Below are positions 5,098 through 61,848 of a stretch of 64,000 nt of DNA, piece after piece. Under the pieces are notes generated by a model. It saw nothing but the letters and a program-made list of their open reading frames with translations, was not told where the DNA came from and ran no database searches. How positions within the stretch are numbered: the first letter of the stretch is position 1; each line of letters opens with the position of its first letter. This DNA comes from a virus. Location of the stretch: the IMG/VR virus record IMGVR_UViG_3300027795_000039, positions 1-64,000 of that record. One strand, written 5' to 3'. A program made the position numbers and the translations under genes.

Positions 5098-5697
5098 ATG
5101 AACGCGTACACTAGCCACAGCACCACCACTCACCAGTACGCTACTGATGGTCAGATCAATTACCTGAAGGACCTGCTCGCTAAGAATGAGCTGTACGCCG
5201 GTGAGTATGACCGGCTGTGGAAGCTGCTTGCGGTCCACGAGCTGGACATCCGGACCCCAGGTGACGGTACTCGGATGTCGTTCGCCCAGGCCAGCGCTAG
5301 CATTGACTGGGTGAAGCGCCAGGTCGCTAAGATCAAGCAGGCTGCACCAGCTGAGGCACCCGAAGTCGTCAAGTTCGGTGTTTACCAGAAGGATGGTGAG
5401 GTTTACCTGGTTGTGCCGAACAAGGCTGGTGACCGGGTCTACGCGAAGCGGCTCGTGGAGTCCGAGCAAATCACCGAGGCTGGTGTTACCATTGATTTCA
5501 CCTGGGAGTACGCCCCGCGGATCGTCTGGAACCTGGCTGAGGCAGACCGGATGAACCTGGAAGACGCTAGCAAGCTGTCGATCCGGTACGGCAAGTGTCT
5601 TCGGTGTCATCGAACATTGAAGTCAGCTCACACGCTTCACACCGTCCAGGAAACTGGTATCATGATCGGGCCGGTCTGCCGTAAGTATTTTGCTTAG
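5098..5697 (+). CDS. Hypothetical protein with C-terminal DUF6011-like Zn motif
   Basis: CLRCHRTL...GIMIGPVC. Confidence 0.65.
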   Translation: MNAYTSHSTTTHQYATDGQINYLKDLLAKNELYAGEYDRLWKLLAVHELDIRTPGDGTRMSFAQASASIDWVKRQVAKIKQAAPAEAPEVVKFGVYQKDGEVYLVVPNKAGDRVYAKRLVESEQITEAGVTIDFTWEYAPRIVWNLAEADRMNLEDASKLSIRYGKCLRCHRTLKSAHTLHTVQETGIMIGPVCRKYFA

Positions 5698-5707
5698 AAT
5701 AGAAAAA

Positions 5708-5744
5708 GTGTCTGCCACTCCTGATGGGGAGGAGTGGCAGACAC
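5708..5744 (+). terminator. Stem-loop, probable terminator
   Basis: GTGTCTGCCACTCCT / AGGAGTGGCAGACAC perfect 15-bp inverted repeat right after a stop codon. Confidence 0.65.
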
Positions 5745-6062
5745 GACTGTGGAGGAATCATGGCTGATGCAACGTACCGGCTTTGTACCCGCGTTCGTAC
5801 CAATCCATTTTTGATGCTGGAGCTATCACCAGACGCAGCCATCACTACCGGACCGTGTTCACGGTGCGACGTGATGGTGTGGGTTGACGCGGCTCAGCCA
5901 ATTCCTGATGGTGTTCCAATTGAGATCATCCTGCTGTGTACTGAGTGTGCGCTCGACGACTCGCACATCAATCAAACACTTGAGCAGAACTTGATGACAG
6001 CTTATTTGAAAAAGCAGATACTCGGCCAGACACACGTTTGGGAAATCGATGATGGTAAGTAA
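5724..6062 (+). CDS. Hypothetical Cys-rich protein (likely start ATG 5760)
   Basis: GGAGG RBS before MADAT; CSRC and CTEC motifs. Confidence 0.5.
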   Translation: MGRSGRHDCGGIMADATYRLCTRVRTNPFLMLELSPDAAITTGPCSRCDVMVWVDAAQPIPDGVPIEIILLCTECALDDSHINQTLEQNLMTAYLKKQILGQTHVWEIDDGK

Positions 6063-54507: not shown

Positions 54508-55836
54508 TTACACGTCATTATCTGGCATAACAACACTTAGGTTTACTGTTCCGTCTGCATCCACACTATCTACACGATACGTGGTTCCTCGAGGGAGGAT
54601 ATGCTCCTGTACTCCCTTATCACCGTTTACCATGTTGTACCCACGTGGTATGGTAATTTTCATCACGCGAGGAGTACCAGGTGTTATTTTCAAATCAACG
54701 AGTGGTGATTCAGTTTGCCCAGGCTGCAGTTGACCAGCGCGCGCGTAAGCAAAATTAGTCGCTTCTTCTTTGCTTTCAGTCGTTGATCCAAATGCTTTGT
54801 CGGTGAATTTCATACCTGGTTTAAGCTCAAAATCAGCGGGAGCTGACATTCCACGATACACCGTGGTATCTTGTCGTGCCCAGCTTTTAGCGATTGCACT
54901 ATCTAGGATCCCGATGTCACCGCTTACACCAGACAGATATGAACCGTCACCTCGTCGCAGTGCAGGGTTAAAGTAATCAGCGCCACCACTACGTGGTCTT
55001 TCGTAATCCTTTAGTAGGTACTTTTCTGGGTTTGATAGCTTACCAAATGGTGCATCTGGGTTATCTGCAACGCGTTTTGGCTCAGACAACGTCATTCGCT
55101 TAGACGCACCAGGACCAGGGATACCATCATATTTAATACTATTAGATAGTTTAAATGCTTGAGATCTTCTCAAACCAATCGGTGTATCTTTGTTGTTAAC
55201 GTGCCACGCTTGAGAAGCCAAATACAGATGATGATATGCCAGCGTTGGTGAACTATTATTAAGCGCTTCTTCTGCCTTAGGCAAGTGCTTACCGACAATT
55301 TTTTGCTCATCTTCTGGCAAGCTAGTGAATTGTTGTTGAATAGCTGGATCATTACTCAAAATTGAGAAGTGATCTGGTTCCACTTTATCGCTAACGACAT
55401 CTTCAACGTGATTAGCTGGTGTACCAATCGTTTTCTTTGGTGGTTTTACACCATCTTCACGTTGTGTTTTACCAGAATTAAAGTGACCTGCCAATGTTCT
55501 AACAGCAGTTTCACGGTCTTTATGAGATGAGGTATGACCATCTGAGTGTGTGGCCGTGTATTTACCGGTAATACCGCGGTCAACGCGACCAACACTGTAA
55601 CCAGACGGTTTATGTACCACGGTGCCATCACGTTTTACTGACAGATCGGCTGTTTTTAGCTTATCTGGTTTATCACCACAAGGAGGACGCACGCAGATGA
55701 AGCCGTGGATATACCCTTCAGCACCAACCTTAATGACATCTGGTATCACTGACATAAGTGGCATCAGTCGCTCAAACGCACGTTCATCTACCTGGCGCTT
55801 GGCGTCAGATAGATTACTGAACAGCGAAGCGATCAT
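54508..55836 (-). CDS. Putative head-packaged VIP2-like ADP-ribosyltransferase
   Basis: KVGAEGYIHG N-terminus; NPALR, VYRG, FGSTT, EHILPRGT. Confidence 0.8.
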   Translation of the reverse strand: MIASLFSNLSDAKRQVDERAFERLMPLMSVIPDVIKVGAEGYIHGFICVRPPCGDKPDKLKTADLSVKRDGTVVHKPSGYSVGRVDRGITGKYTATHSDGHTSSHKDRETAVRTLAGHFNSGKTQREDGVKPPKKTIGTPANHVEDVVSDKVEPDHFSILSNDPAIQQQFTSLPEDEQKIVGKHLPKAEEALNNSSPTLAYHHLYLASQAWHVNNKDTPIGLRRSQAFKLSNSIKYDGIPGPGASKRMTLSEPKRVADNPDAPFGKLSNPEKYLLKDYERPRSGGADYFNPALRRGDGSYLSGVSGDIGILDSAIAKSWARQDTTVYRGMSAPADFELKPGMKFTDKAFGSTTESKEEATNFAYARAGQLQPGQTESPLVDLKITPGTPRVMKITIPRGYNMVNGDKGVQEHILPRGTTYRVDSVDADGTVNLSVVMPDNDV

Positions 55837-55842
55837 GATGCC

Positions 55843-56640
55843 TCAATTATTCATGCCGATGTTGAGCGCCTGGTGGAGAGTGGGGATGAAGGAGTTGTTG
55901 TCGATGGAAGCGTGGGTGATGCGATGAGTACGATAACCTTTTTCAAGATGATATGTATCGCGTTTTGCATCATGTACCCGAGCCGAATGAGCGGTGTGAG
56001 CTAGACCATCGATTTCGATGTCTAGATTACATGATGGAATAAACAAATCTATTTCGTGACCGGTATCGATGTAATGTGGATCATATTCGATACCAATTTC
56101 ATCTAGATATGTCGCTACAATTGACTCATACGGATACAGTGGTGTATTTTTAAGCAATTGAAGCATGCGTTGCTTCGCTTGCTCACGATGCCCTTCACGA
56201 TCCCAGTGATACAACGGTTGATTAGGATCATCCCAGAGTCGGCGAGCGATTTCTGCTTGTTTTTCACGCTCTGCTGGGTCTTCGTACCGTTTGATCATCA
56301 TCTGACGCTGCGGTTCACGCATCTCAGGATTATTACGGTAGCTTTCTCGACCTTTCGCCTGAGCTGCACGAAATGTTTCAGTTTCACGGAACCGTCGTTG
56401 CGCCTCGTGCCATGCTTCTGATTTATTCGCGCCGTTAGAACCTTGTTTTTGGACTTCAACACCGGCATTAACGAGCAATTCTCGTGCTCTCCAATATTGG
56501 ATATCGTACAGCTCACCGAGCCTGCTTAGACTACCAGTGCGTTCATAATCAGCTTGAAGCTGTTCTCTACTAAGAGCAGACGCCGCCAGAAAATTTTGTT
56601 CGATTTCCTGGCGGCGCTGCTTACCACGATTATTTCCCAA
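55843..56640 (-). CDS. Free-standing Vsr/DUF559 (EDxHD-type) homing endonuclease
   Basis: IDLFIP..NLDIEIDGLAH...HDAKRD..L..KGYRTHRI; N-terminus paralogous to the intron-5 ORF. Confidence 0.75.
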   Translation of the reverse strand: MGNNRGKQRRQEIEQNFLAASALSREQLQADYERTGSLSRLGELYDIQYWRARELLVNAGVEVQKQGSNGANKSEAWHEAQRRFRETETFRAAQAKGRESYRNNPEMREPQRQMMIKRYEDPAEREKQAEIARRLWDDPNQPLYHWDREGHREQAKQRMLQLLKNTPLYPYESIVATYLDEIGIEYDPHYIDTGHEIDLFIPSCNLDIEIDGLAHTAHSARVHDAKRDTYHLEKGYRTHRITHASIDNNSFIPTLHQALNIGMNN

Positions 56641-56716: not shown

Positions 56717-59700
56717 TTATGAGTATGGCGTGGTGTCCGATACTTGACAGTAAACTTTGTTACCAGTAAAATACTGGGCTAAGTCGTTTCCGCTTAGCTC
56801 TACGTGTTTCCACGCAGCTCAGACTCTCTCTTCATCTCGTTACACGAGAGCATCGTACATAGTCGTTGAACCTTCCCATCGCTTTCGCAGGTGGGCTCGG
56901 CTGCTGATTTTCCCTACTACCAGCTTCTCAAACCATCACGCTCATGTTTTCACATCACGTTGTGGTGCTGATATTTAATGGGAGGTTCCAGCAATTCTCG
57001 ATGTTATTGCCCGTTTCTCGCGAAACGGCGACCCTCACATTGTCGAAAGGCCTTGTAGAATTCCGGAGTAGAATGGCGCGTAGCTGACGAGCGCTCCATA
57101 GCAAGCTGTTACTACATGATTACTCATGCGACCAGATCGTTTCCGTCTGGTTCTCATGATTTACCATCTCATGAGATCGGACTGTCTCTTGATCTGCGAT
57201 ATTAACCACGTAATGCCTCGTAGCTGATATCATAACACAGATCCGGTACATACAGTCTCTGCACGCTGGTAGGCATTACCAACGCTCAGGATTCCCTATT
57301 ATAATGCAGGTAGGGTTCCCTGAACAGTACCGATTCACTTATTCTGTTACCAGAATAGTGCCCCTAATAAACGAGGAACAATGAATATCGGAAGGACGCG
57401 TCAATTACAGGCCACGCGATACTAACATAATCCTGGACGCCTTTTTGTTACTTAATTGAGCCATTATAGCTGCAATTAGAATTGGTCATTTCTGCCAATT
57501 TCTTACTATCTCCAGTAAGAACAGAGCACATCTTCATCCTGTTTCCAGGAGCCACGTGCATGCTCGTTGAACCTTCTCGTCATCATATGATAGGCGAGCT
57601 CGGCTGCTGATTTTCTCTGTCATTAGTTTCTCAAACCATCACGCTCGGTTTTTCAACTCACGTTGTGGTACTAATGCTTACCGAGATGTTCCAGCAATTC
57701 TCGTGGTTTATCATTACTCGTTACCGAGTATGGACCCGCTAATTCAGGTCATTTCCCAGGCATTCAGTATTGTTAAGTGCATATTAATACGCACTGCTTA
57801 GTCATTTCTGCTAAGCTCTGCATGTCTCCATGCAGCTCAGCCCATATCTTCATCCGTAAAGGACGCACCGTACATGGTCGTTGAACCTTCCTGTCGCTTT
57901 TTAAAGCAGGCAGGCTCGGCTGCTGATTGCCCCTGCTAACGCATTCTCAGGCATTCGCGTTTGCATTTTCATGCTACGCTGTAGCTGCGTTAGGTGGTAC
58001 GGGTTTTCCAGCAATTCTCGGTGTTTTCACTCACTCGTTACCGAGTGAGGCGCCAATTTTTACTTAGCGACGTTCGTCCACGTCTGCGGCAACTGATACG
58101 TTTGCAGCAGTGCGGTGCCTTGCGTAAGCCACGGGTGAACGACGAGGTTAAGGATAGACCGGGTAATCGGGTTCTGGAACTGCGAAACCGCCGCACCGAT
58201 CTTAACGCCACCAACATCAGGCTGGTCAAGGAACAGCCGGTAGTTCGTGGCTGCACCCTGGCTGATGATGTCGGTGGAGAGGCGCATGAGGTCGCCACCG
58301 TCGCCGACGATTTCCGCCGGGTCAGCACGGAACGCGCCTGGGTTGGTGAAGACGGATTCCCACAGTCCATCCAGCGCCTGGTAAATCGCGTTGTAGGAGA
58401 GATGGGTGCCGACATTCGGGTTGTAGTAGCCACCCTGCCACCCGGATGGGTAGACACTGGAGGTGGCTGACTTACCGGTCAGCGTCGGGATGATGCCTTC
58501 CATCCTGGTGTTCGCGCCGGTGCCAGTGTCGGTCGTCGGAGCGGTGGTGCCGATGGTTGGAATCGCACCCTGGAGCGTATAACGGACACCACCAACACCG
58601 GTGGCCATGCGGTACTGGTTACCCGCGCCCGTGGTGGTGCTGGCATAGATGTTGTACTGCAGCCCCGCATTGACGTATGGGATGGTAACGTCAACAACGC
58701 TACCAGTCGTCAGGGTGATGGAGCTGTTGGCGCTGCTGGCAGCCGTTTCGCCGTAGTAGTTCGTGGCGGTGACAGTGACGTACAGCGTGCCTGAGGTTGG
58801 AGAGAGTGGAGTTTCATTGGAACCTGCGGTACGAAGAGTGCAGGTTGGAGCGGATGGAGTTGTTAGCTTGACGCTGGAGTGGGAGAGCATTGCATATTCT
58901 TCGCCCCATTTTGTTACTCATCACTTACGTGATGGGGCACGTTATTTCTACGTGCCTCTGCAGGTTTACCATACCAGCAGTTCGGACTGTCTCTTAATCC
59001 GTGGCTAATCATGCATGTCGCTTCACATAAATTATCCGTAGCGGATTCGGTACATACAGTCTCTGCACACCATAAAGCGTTATGGTGCTCACGATTCCCC
59101 AGTAACATGGTGGGGTTCCCTGAACAGTACCATACATCTACACAATTACTTGCGTAGCGGACCAGCGATGATCATCATCTCTTGCAAGAGAATCAGGGAT
59201 GCCAATGCACTTACATCTTCGAACGGAGTTGTTACTTCCTAATAACTGAGAGTTATTTACTCTCATTGTCATCATCAGGAGAGCAGGTCATTTCTGCCTG
59301 CTTCTGCATTTTTTCCATCAATGCAGACCGGACTATATCATCGTCACTTTTTCGTCTACCAACTTGTGCCGACCGTAGAAGTCCATACGTACGTTGAGGT
59401 GAGCGAATTGTACATTCTGGGTTTTCTTCCGCTGGAATGCTGAGTGATCTAACACATTCATCCGCATGAGCGAATATGTCTTCAGCTGCGAATCTTACAA
59501 TTTCTATCCCAGAATCACGTATCTCTCGTGATCGCTTTACGTTGTACTCTTCCATAACACGATCTGGCTTAGCATCAATTTCGATAGCGAGAAGCCGGTC
59601 ATGAAGAAGTACATCAACGTAGTATTTACCACGTAGTACGATGGCATTTGAGGTAAATGAAACTGACGCTCGTTTAAGAGCATCTTGCAATTCAGCTTCA

Positions 59701-61848: not shown

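Follow-up and report, generated by a model that had tools for sequence, protein, structure and literature searches.

Within the first 64,000 nucleotides (nt) of the IMG/VR virus record IMGVR_UViG_3300027795_000039, hereafter the window, the coding sequence of one gene lies in 11 colinear exons on the minus strand, at 61848-56717, a span of 5.1 kb. We think it highly probable that this is the sole HK97-fold capsid gene of an uncultured soil phage with a genome of about 132 kb, that group I introns have invaded it ten times, and that its transcript is spliced to encode a protein of 608 amino acids (aa); the splicing of the ten inserts is something that we infer from sequence. The complete record comprises 132,026 bp, is labelled a provirus and is estimated to be 93% complete.

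Exon structure of the gene

Joining the exons yields 1827 nt, that is, 608 codons followed by a single terminal stop, in a frame that is otherwise free of stops. A preliminary description of this DNA, prepared from the letters alone, had arrived at 11 exons and a stop-free product of 608 aa, and the exon lengths that it listed were reproduced exactly on the minus strand. Exon 1 (61443-61848, 406 nt) opens with the start codon at 61848 and encodes a mostly helical N-terminal region. It is followed by exon 2 (61136-61178, 43 nt), exon 3 (61053-61075, 23 nt, coding for VAPSRLI), exon 4 (60523-60753, 231 nt), exon 5 (60192-60250, 59 nt), exon 6 (59171-59223, 53 nt), exon 7 (58066-58906, 841 nt), exon 8 (57746-57764, 19 nt, coding for NAWEMT), exon 9 (57374-57440, 67 nt), exon 10 (57048-57101, 54 nt) and exon 11 (56717-56747, 31 nt including the TAA stop). 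As the description had anticipated, callers of open reading frames (ORFs) miss the gene. ORF finding alone returned two sizeable pieces only, one of 142 aa (61848-61420) in exon 1 and one of 276 aa (58890-58060) contained in exon 7. Many database 'proteins' of this capsid family likewise begin or stop at intron sites.

All 11 exons have the same basis, namely tblastn pieces, the joined frame, the junction alignment to homologues and a blind spliced alignment. The 276-aa ORF has hundreds of uninterrupted relatives of 600-610 aa (518 matches among longer proteins), and a tblastn search with three uninterrupted relatives against the region returned eleven colinear pieces. The joined product is 80.2% identical, over 605 aligned positions, to an uninterrupted homologue of 607 aa, P0001. 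Alignment with intron-less homologues had been suggested as a check of the spliced product, which proved to be colinear with them. All ten junctions, at which the predicted junction peptides were recovered without exception, are free of gaps against 11 uninterrupted homologues, and the split codons restore the residue of the homologues. A protein-to-DNA spliced aligner, run with P0001 as the query and blind to the exons proposed earlier, gave the identical 11 blocks. In-frame stops are present in every one of the ten inserts; none can therefore be read through and each must be removed. The G+C content is 57.1% in the exons and 46.7% in the introns, and introns account for 64% of the span of the gene.

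We compared the locus with a contig of 14 kb from the Logan collection, built by a second assembler from the DNA run that is the probable source of the record. The contig is identical over all 5351 bases at a depth of about 10x, in a comparison that probably draws on the same read set as the record and in which contigs drop rare variants. No alternative or intron-less contig at ≥90% likeness was found among the Logan contigs of that run. Since two assemblers agree, the anomalies described below are not assembly slips of one program. These data also bear on whether the locus is a chimera, in which strains with few introns each were threaded into one path and the count of introns was inflated. 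In its favour, the source is a soil metagenome sequenced at about 10x, and related loci carry introns at many different sites. Against it stand the identical Logan contig, the lack of an alternative contig and the micro-exons of 19-67 nt, which are shorter than a read, so that single reads physically connect adjacent introns. We regard a chimera as very improbable.

A capsid protein of the HK97 fold

Neither the exons nor three full-length homologues matched a Pfam family, and the sole family match of the protein was PHROG 13692, whose function is unknown. A sequence search of the PDB found no relative of the protein, and the cultured phages of INPHARED gave no match by megablast of the region or tblastn of exon 7. 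As the sequence tools gave no name, the structure of P0001 was predicted. The AlphaFold model, based on an alignment of 82 family members, had a predicted local distance difference test score of 83 and a predicted template modelling score of 0.80. The top Foldseek matches in the PDB were all phage capsids, led by SPO1 (E-value 6.5e-11) and followed by Pa223, SU10, T5 and HK97, and the top matches in BFVD are annotated as major capsid proteins. VIA-align gave Z-scores of 19.3 for SPO1, 17.5 for phi812 and 16.0 for HK97 (1ohg), the last with a root-mean-square deviation of 3.7 over 250 of 280 residues; all 50 of the matches listed by VIA-align are HK97-fold shells, either capsid or encapsulin.

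The proposal that the gene encodes the major capsid protein, for which an HK97 fold had been expected from structure prediction, is thus supported at the level of the fold, through the model of a homologue that is 80% identical. No membership in a named capsid family (PF05065 or similar) was found, and we therefore file the protein at fold level and not in PF05065. A second capsid copy was not found in the 132-kb record by tblastn or by a PF05065 search, which had no match.

In the P0001 model, residues ~295-385, which correspond to exon 7 of the window, form an inserted beta-sandwich domain. Searched alone in BFVD, this domain matches tail and other immunoglobulin-like phage proteins (ranks 18-25), a likeness from which we regard it as probably a surface decoration domain. 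A weak additional tblastn match to P0001 residues 130-153 (60% identity, E-value 0.01) was seen on the minus strand at 79859-79933 of the record. These residues adjoin the linker, modelled with low confidence, that connects the helical N-terminal region to the capsid fold, and the match may reflect a shared protease-cleavage or targeting motif.

Three classes of group I introns

Nine of the ten inserts carry group I ribozyme cores, which fall by sequence alignment into three classes: A (introns 3, 7, 8 and 10), B (introns 1, 6 and 9) and C (introns 4 and 5). Eight of these nine full inserts measure 264-305 nt, and the remaining one, of 968 nt, harbours an endonuclease gene. The earlier count of ten group I-type introns thus stands for nine apparently complete ribozymes; intron 2 (61076-61135, minus strand like all the introns), a core-less mini-intron of 60 nt with an in-frame TGA, lacks the catalytic core.

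The curated cut-off of the Rfam model RF00028, 50 bits, was reached by five of the ten inserts. These are intron 7 (57765-58065, 301 nt; 69.5 bits), intron 10 (56748-57047, 300 nt; 67.6 bits), intron 4 (60251-60522, 272 nt; 55.4 bits), intron 8 (57441-57745, 305 nt; 52.5 bits) and intron 3 (60754-61052, 299 nt; 50.7 bits). Intron 9 (57102-57373, 272 nt) scored 48.8 bits (E-value 2.4e-10), slightly below the cut-off; beyond these six inserts, RF00028 has no match anywhere in the 132-kb record. A scan with covariance models, which had been put forward as a check, therefore bore out part of the set, and introns 1, 2, 5 and 6 were left without a match to RF00028. Because introns 1 (61179-61442, 264 nt) and 6 (58907-59170, 264 nt) have no such match, their group I nature rests on homology and covariation with intron 9. 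In the class-B consensus, built from introns 1, 6 and 9 and four introns of relatives, 47 of the 66 pairs show compensatory changes, and the covarying helices correspond to P2, P4-P6, P7, P8 and P9. P3 could be recognized by eye in class B (CAGUAC/GUACUG in intron 1 versus CGGUAC/GUACCG in intron 9) and in class C (CGCGC/GCGCG in intron 4 versus GCUGC/GCAGC in intron 5). The parts of intron 5 (59224-60191, 968 nt) that lie 5' and 3' of its ORF both align with intron 4, with matches to the nhmmer profile at 60154-60021 and 59345-59270. The class-B profile finds intron 1 with an E-value of 3e-60, intron 1 being itself a member of that profile. When the class profiles were run over the whole record, all matches with an E-value <0.01 fell inside 56745-61441; all detectable introns of the record sit in the capsid gene.

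Splice sites

All ten upstream exons end in U (T in the DNA), and nine of the ten inserts end in G (omega-G), intron 3 ending in A. For each of the ten inserts it is possible to draw a P1 of 3-6 bp headed by U.G, with a mean length of 4.5 bp for the cognate pairings versus 3.3 bp in 90 mismatched exon/intron pairings, the two distributions overlapping. The earlier statement that each 5' exon ends in a U paired to a guide G accordingly holds for the exon ends; the pairing is less distinctive, the cognate P1 being hardly longer than the mismatched ones. P10 support at most junctions, also claimed, was not borne out, as a contiguous P10 of at least 4 bp exists in only five of the ten inserts. In six aligned introns, the P1 register of the Rfam model agreed with the protein-derived 5' splice site twice, in introns 7 and 8; in intron 7 the U10.G21 pair of the model falls at the splice site. 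P1, P10 and the Rfam register are weak guides, so that protein colinearity is the main basis for the splice sites. For intron 1, the best P1 proposed by the script (6 bp, at intron nt 45) falls within the core and was rejected as spurious; the likely P1, found by eye, is GGGU/GCCC at intron nt 7.

Two anomalous introns flank exon 3

Introns 2 and 3 both depart from the pattern, and both border the 23-nt exon 3. In intron 2, P1 is 5 bp long and includes a U.G pair (GACCU/GGGUC), and next to it a P10 of 7 bp can form with exon 3; the insert further has a hairpin with a GUAA loop that resembles the P2 of class A, and a terminal G. Its site is uninterrupted in all the homologues aligned. It shares its P1 with intron 8, and intron 10 presents the same guide against GGCCU. 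Intron 2 thus fits the small degenerate type of group I intron, which is tiny and has kept the splice-site helices and lost the core; judged from its sequence, it cannot self-splice. A complement of 8 bp is visible between the 3' part of intron 2 and the border of exon 3 and intron 3. The fold of the segment running from exon 2 through intron 2 and exon 3 to the start of intron 3 is not significantly stable (z = -2.0, with 9 of 200 shuffles as stable). As for intron 3, the G-C pair of P7 that binds guanosine looks, by eye, like that of its siblings, and its second splicing step may be poor. Two 3' sites ending in G were considered for it and rejected: one lengthens the conserved spacing of AP, five residues and P, and the other removes the nearly invariant Pro161. 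Checked by hand, none of the G-ending sites preserves the RLIYPVY spacing conserved in the family.

Several observations weigh against a gene that is expressed through ten splicing events. Intron 2 has no P3-P9 core, and intron 3 ends in A despite its sibling-like P7. The P1 helices have few base pairs and show no clear advantage over mismatched pairings. Introns 1 and 6, scanned alone with Rfam at an E-value ≤10, returned chance matches resembling small nucleolar RNAs and none to RF00028. The capsid fold was obtained with a homologue and not with the joined product of the window, the only sequencing run listed with the locus is a DNA run and none is RNA, and the provirus label of the record leaves room for a recently inactivated gene.

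Part of this evidence would suit a gene that is dead or dying in a defective prophage, where the other introns are real and intron 2, intron 3 or both are not removable. The in-frame TGA and missing core of the 60-nt intron 2, the lack of a terminal G in intron 3, the flanking of one 23-nt exon by both anomalies and the provirus label in IMG/VR all agree with such a fate. Yet all 1827 exon bases are open, the product shares 80% identity with an intact homologue and its junctions are gap-free. Intron 2, moreover, retains exactly the substrate parts, which random decay would not keep, and a Coxiella intron without the canonical terminal G is reported to self-splice, according to an entry in a reference list (PMC3428280). 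We consider loss of function improbable.

A different account would leave intron 2 in the message, with ribosomes bypassing its 60 nt, as in T4 gene 60, or reading through it. In favour of this, the insert is short and in frame and has a stop codon inside. The take-off and landing codons, however, do not match (CUU before the gap and AGU before the resumed GUC), the insert has the P1, P10, P2 and terminal G of a group I intron with P1-P2 like those of class A, and read-through would place 20 residues in the most conserved motif of the family. Such decoding is in our judgement scarcely credible.

Introns in the capsid loci of relatives

We then analysed 40 related loci, of which IMG/VR supplied 22 and metagenome contigs 18. 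Several entries are one contig taken from two collections (for example L008/L030, L015/L033 and L028/L035) and are not independent. The spliced aligner reports some 'interruptions' by chance where conservation is poor, in the first 40 residues, as well as some short gaps; interruptions before residue 40 or of <200 nt were therefore dropped before counting. A 65-nt 'gap' in L038 was rejected as an artefact, since the contig begins within an intron. No interruption was counted in 23 loci, one in seven, two in three, three in three, four in three and five in a single locus (L007), and the interruptions of the 17 affected loci lie at about 14-17 approximate positions. With 1-5 interruptions elsewhere in 17 of 40 loci and none in 23, the introns are optional and mobile in this lineage. 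At its gathering threshold Rfam reported only three introns, in two of the 22 IMG/VR loci, so that the general model often misses introns of this kind.

Three loci, L007, L024 and L037, were inspected by eye. Three introns of L007 lie 1-4 codons from the sites of introns 7, 8 and 9 and not at them. In L037, a 291-nt intron (5546-5836) sits exactly at the site of intron 4, after the first base of the Tyr codon that follows NVP. By crude identity it is closer to class A than to the class-C intron 4 of the window, in a matrix of 20 introns whose background is about 60-70% and in which orthology is not resolved; different classes may on this evidence use one site. In L024 (2653-4298), a relative with 54% identity, a 30-nt micro-exon coding for SRLIYPVYTV lies between introns of 1345 and 269 nt, a few codons from exon 3 of the window. 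Across the family, at least six different insertion sites occur in a stretch of 30 codons around GLVPFDL..YPVYTVFRNK. These comparisons mark the capsid gene of the lineage as a hot spot for introns that are optional and mobile, and of the loci examined the window carries the heaviest load. Relatives occur on contigs of Actinoallomurus, Streptomyces, Cellulomonadaceae and Streptosporangiaceae, which points to actinobacterial (Actinomycetota) hosts.

Endonucleases and a model for splicing and spread

Intron 5 contains an ORF of 271 aa (59253-60068, minus strand) with the Pfam domains HTH_58 (23.8 bits, cut-off 23.8) and DUF559, a Vsr-like nuclease (23.2 bits, cut-off 20.6), and on the strength of these matches we regard it as a putative homing endonuclease. 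A free-standing ORF of 265 aa (55843-56640, minus strand), 76 nt downstream of the capsid stop, has weak matches to MTES_1575/DUF559 and a PHROG match to HNH/homing endonucleases. Over its N-terminal 65 aa it shares 54% identity with the intron-5 ORF, and the protein may drive the homing of introns that lack an ORF. In work on cyanophage psbA, a free-standing endonuclease is said to be able to drive such homing.

In the model that we favour, each full intron would remove itself by the standard two-step pathway initiated by guanosine. The short P1 and P10 formed on each intron's own guide would select the sites, so that the micro-exons of 19-67 nt are kept and not skipped; the differing guides of neighbours (GGCG in intron 7, GGGUC in intron 8) would help to retain the 19-nt exon 8. 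The outcome of the ten splices would be the capsid protein of 608 aa. Since intron 2 has the P1 of intron 8, the guide of intron 10 and a P2 like that of class A, it is most likely a class-A descendant, a deletion remnant in which the substrate domain (P1, P10, P2 and the terminal G) is all that is left. Without a core it would need a sibling ribozyme; docking into the core of a sibling, probably intron 3, which starts 23 nt downstream, is its most likely route to splicing. This is the weakest step of the model. The introns probably accumulated by homing, through the intron-5 nuclease and its free-standing relative, and also by recombination among co-infecting relatives with introns at other sites.

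A more far-reaching version, which we hold only tentatively and think somewhat doubtful as a whole, would make the gene a self-sustaining 'intron sink'. Class-A introns would here have spread to look-alike sites, the guide GGGUC of introns 2 and 8 facing exon ends GACCU and that of intron 10 facing GGCCU. Intron 2, a copy that lost its core, would borrow that of a sibling, so that one core might serve two ordered splicing events, in trans or in cis. The load of introns, equally conjecturally, may be kept because the intron-borne and adjacent nucleases would let the phage cleave the capsid genes of co-infecting relatives and convert them.

Comparison with other intron-rich genes

The preliminary description had stated that phage group I introns usually number one to three per gene, mostly in genes of DNA metabolism; this view is dated, as capsid introns and higher counts have been published. 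Its judgement that ten in one gene is extreme agrees with our survey, in which ten is well above the count for any phage gene found in the literature. We found no published phage gene with more than four interruptions in a search that was not exhaustive, and supplementary tables may hold higher counts; the capsid gene is the most interrupted phage gene that we found on record.

Single group I introns are described in the capsid genes of LittleE, where splicing was shown, and Tuc2009 (PMC3706429). Sets of three are described in Twort orf142 and in polymerase and terminase genes of Bastillevirinae (PMC11878797). The account of Twort orf142, with three group I introns, a 23-nt exon and partial exon skipping (PMC10136302), resembles the present locus in its several related group I introns and in a 23-nt micro-exon between two similar introns. 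It differs in having three introns rather than ten and in that splicing there is experimental, whereas here it is deduced; the Twort text examined does not mention a core-less member or an A-ending intron, both of which occur here. A crAss-like capsid gene that belongs to group Zeta (cMAG OLRF01000054) is reported in five fragments, with four introns (PMC7886860). As here, group I introns break up the major capsid gene of an uncultured phage, and gene callers fail; the crAss-like phages are described as having up to 14 introns genome-wide, whereas our record has ten in one gene and none detected elsewhere. Jug phages are reported to have a mean of 18.5 introns per genome, with terL in 2-3 pieces (PMC12880540).

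Beyond phages, the capsid gene of Faustovirus E12 is described with 13 exons and 12 introns, five of them group I (PMC6247863). That gene shares with ours its wealth of introns, its micro-exons (down to 13 bp) and its intron-borne homing endonucleases, but it belongs to a giant amoeba virus, its introns average 1273 bp and RNA-seq supports its splicing. In Coxiella burnetii's 23S rRNA gene, a 34-nt exon is reported between two group I introns (PMC10136302), one of which, from a title in a reference list (PMC3428280), lacks the canonical terminal G. The micro-exon and the G-less intron parallel exon 3 and intron 3, although the Coxiella gene is a bacterial rRNA gene and both of its introns are described as full ribozymes. 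The degenerate group I introns of 56-81 nt described in fungal nuclear small-subunit ribosomal DNA (PMC3160393) are like intron 2 in measuring about 60 nt and having lost most of the core; unlike it, they lie in a nuclear rRNA gene and, as described, have no adjacent full-length sibling. Fungal mitochondrial cox1 genes hold more introns than the capsid gene, and that of Agaricus bisporus has been called the 'largest reservoir of mitochondrial group I introns' (PMC2987802). There too, one conserved and highly expressed gene acts as a sink for many group I introns, in this case an organelle gene of about 30 kb and not a phage gene.

The locus thus exemplifies a known phenomenon at its quantitative extreme, and two qualitative oddities, the missing core of intron 2 and the terminal A of intron 3, make it attractive for experiments. 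Strong pressure for compactness is assumed to act on phage genomes, and each particle needs its capsid protein in hundreds of copies; ten accurate splicing events would be required for each capsid messenger RNA. Should the gene be expressed, splicing by ribozymes in bacteria would be fast and accurate enough for a load seen so far only in organelles and giant viruses. Expression would also raise the questions of how tandem introns of similar sequence avoid skipping exons of 19-23 nt, whether a core-less intron can borrow the ribozyme of a neighbour, and how ligation is completed without a terminal G. Standard gene callers and Pfam overlook the capsid gene across this lineage, and the annotation of viromes and phylogenies based on capsids are affected as a result.

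Genes around the capsid locus

The neighbours of the capsid gene are mostly unannotated; those that could be named are an Alt-like ADP-ribosyltransferase, a protein with a weak 'virion structural protein' match and a NUDIX enzyme. A 1064-aa protein with an Alt-like ADP-ribosyltransferase domain (Pfam E-value 7e-24) is encoded upstream of the capsid gene, on the minus strand at 69063-72257 of the record (7063-10257 of L029). Alongside it are very large ORFs (1373 and 2162 aa) that match no known family. Three ORFs on the minus strand, at 54508-55836, 62058-62765 and 63589-63969, have a near-identical peptide in common, ..PDV(I/T)KVG(P/A)(E/K)GY(I/E)HG.., and one of the three encodes a protein with an ADP-ribosyltransferase domain.

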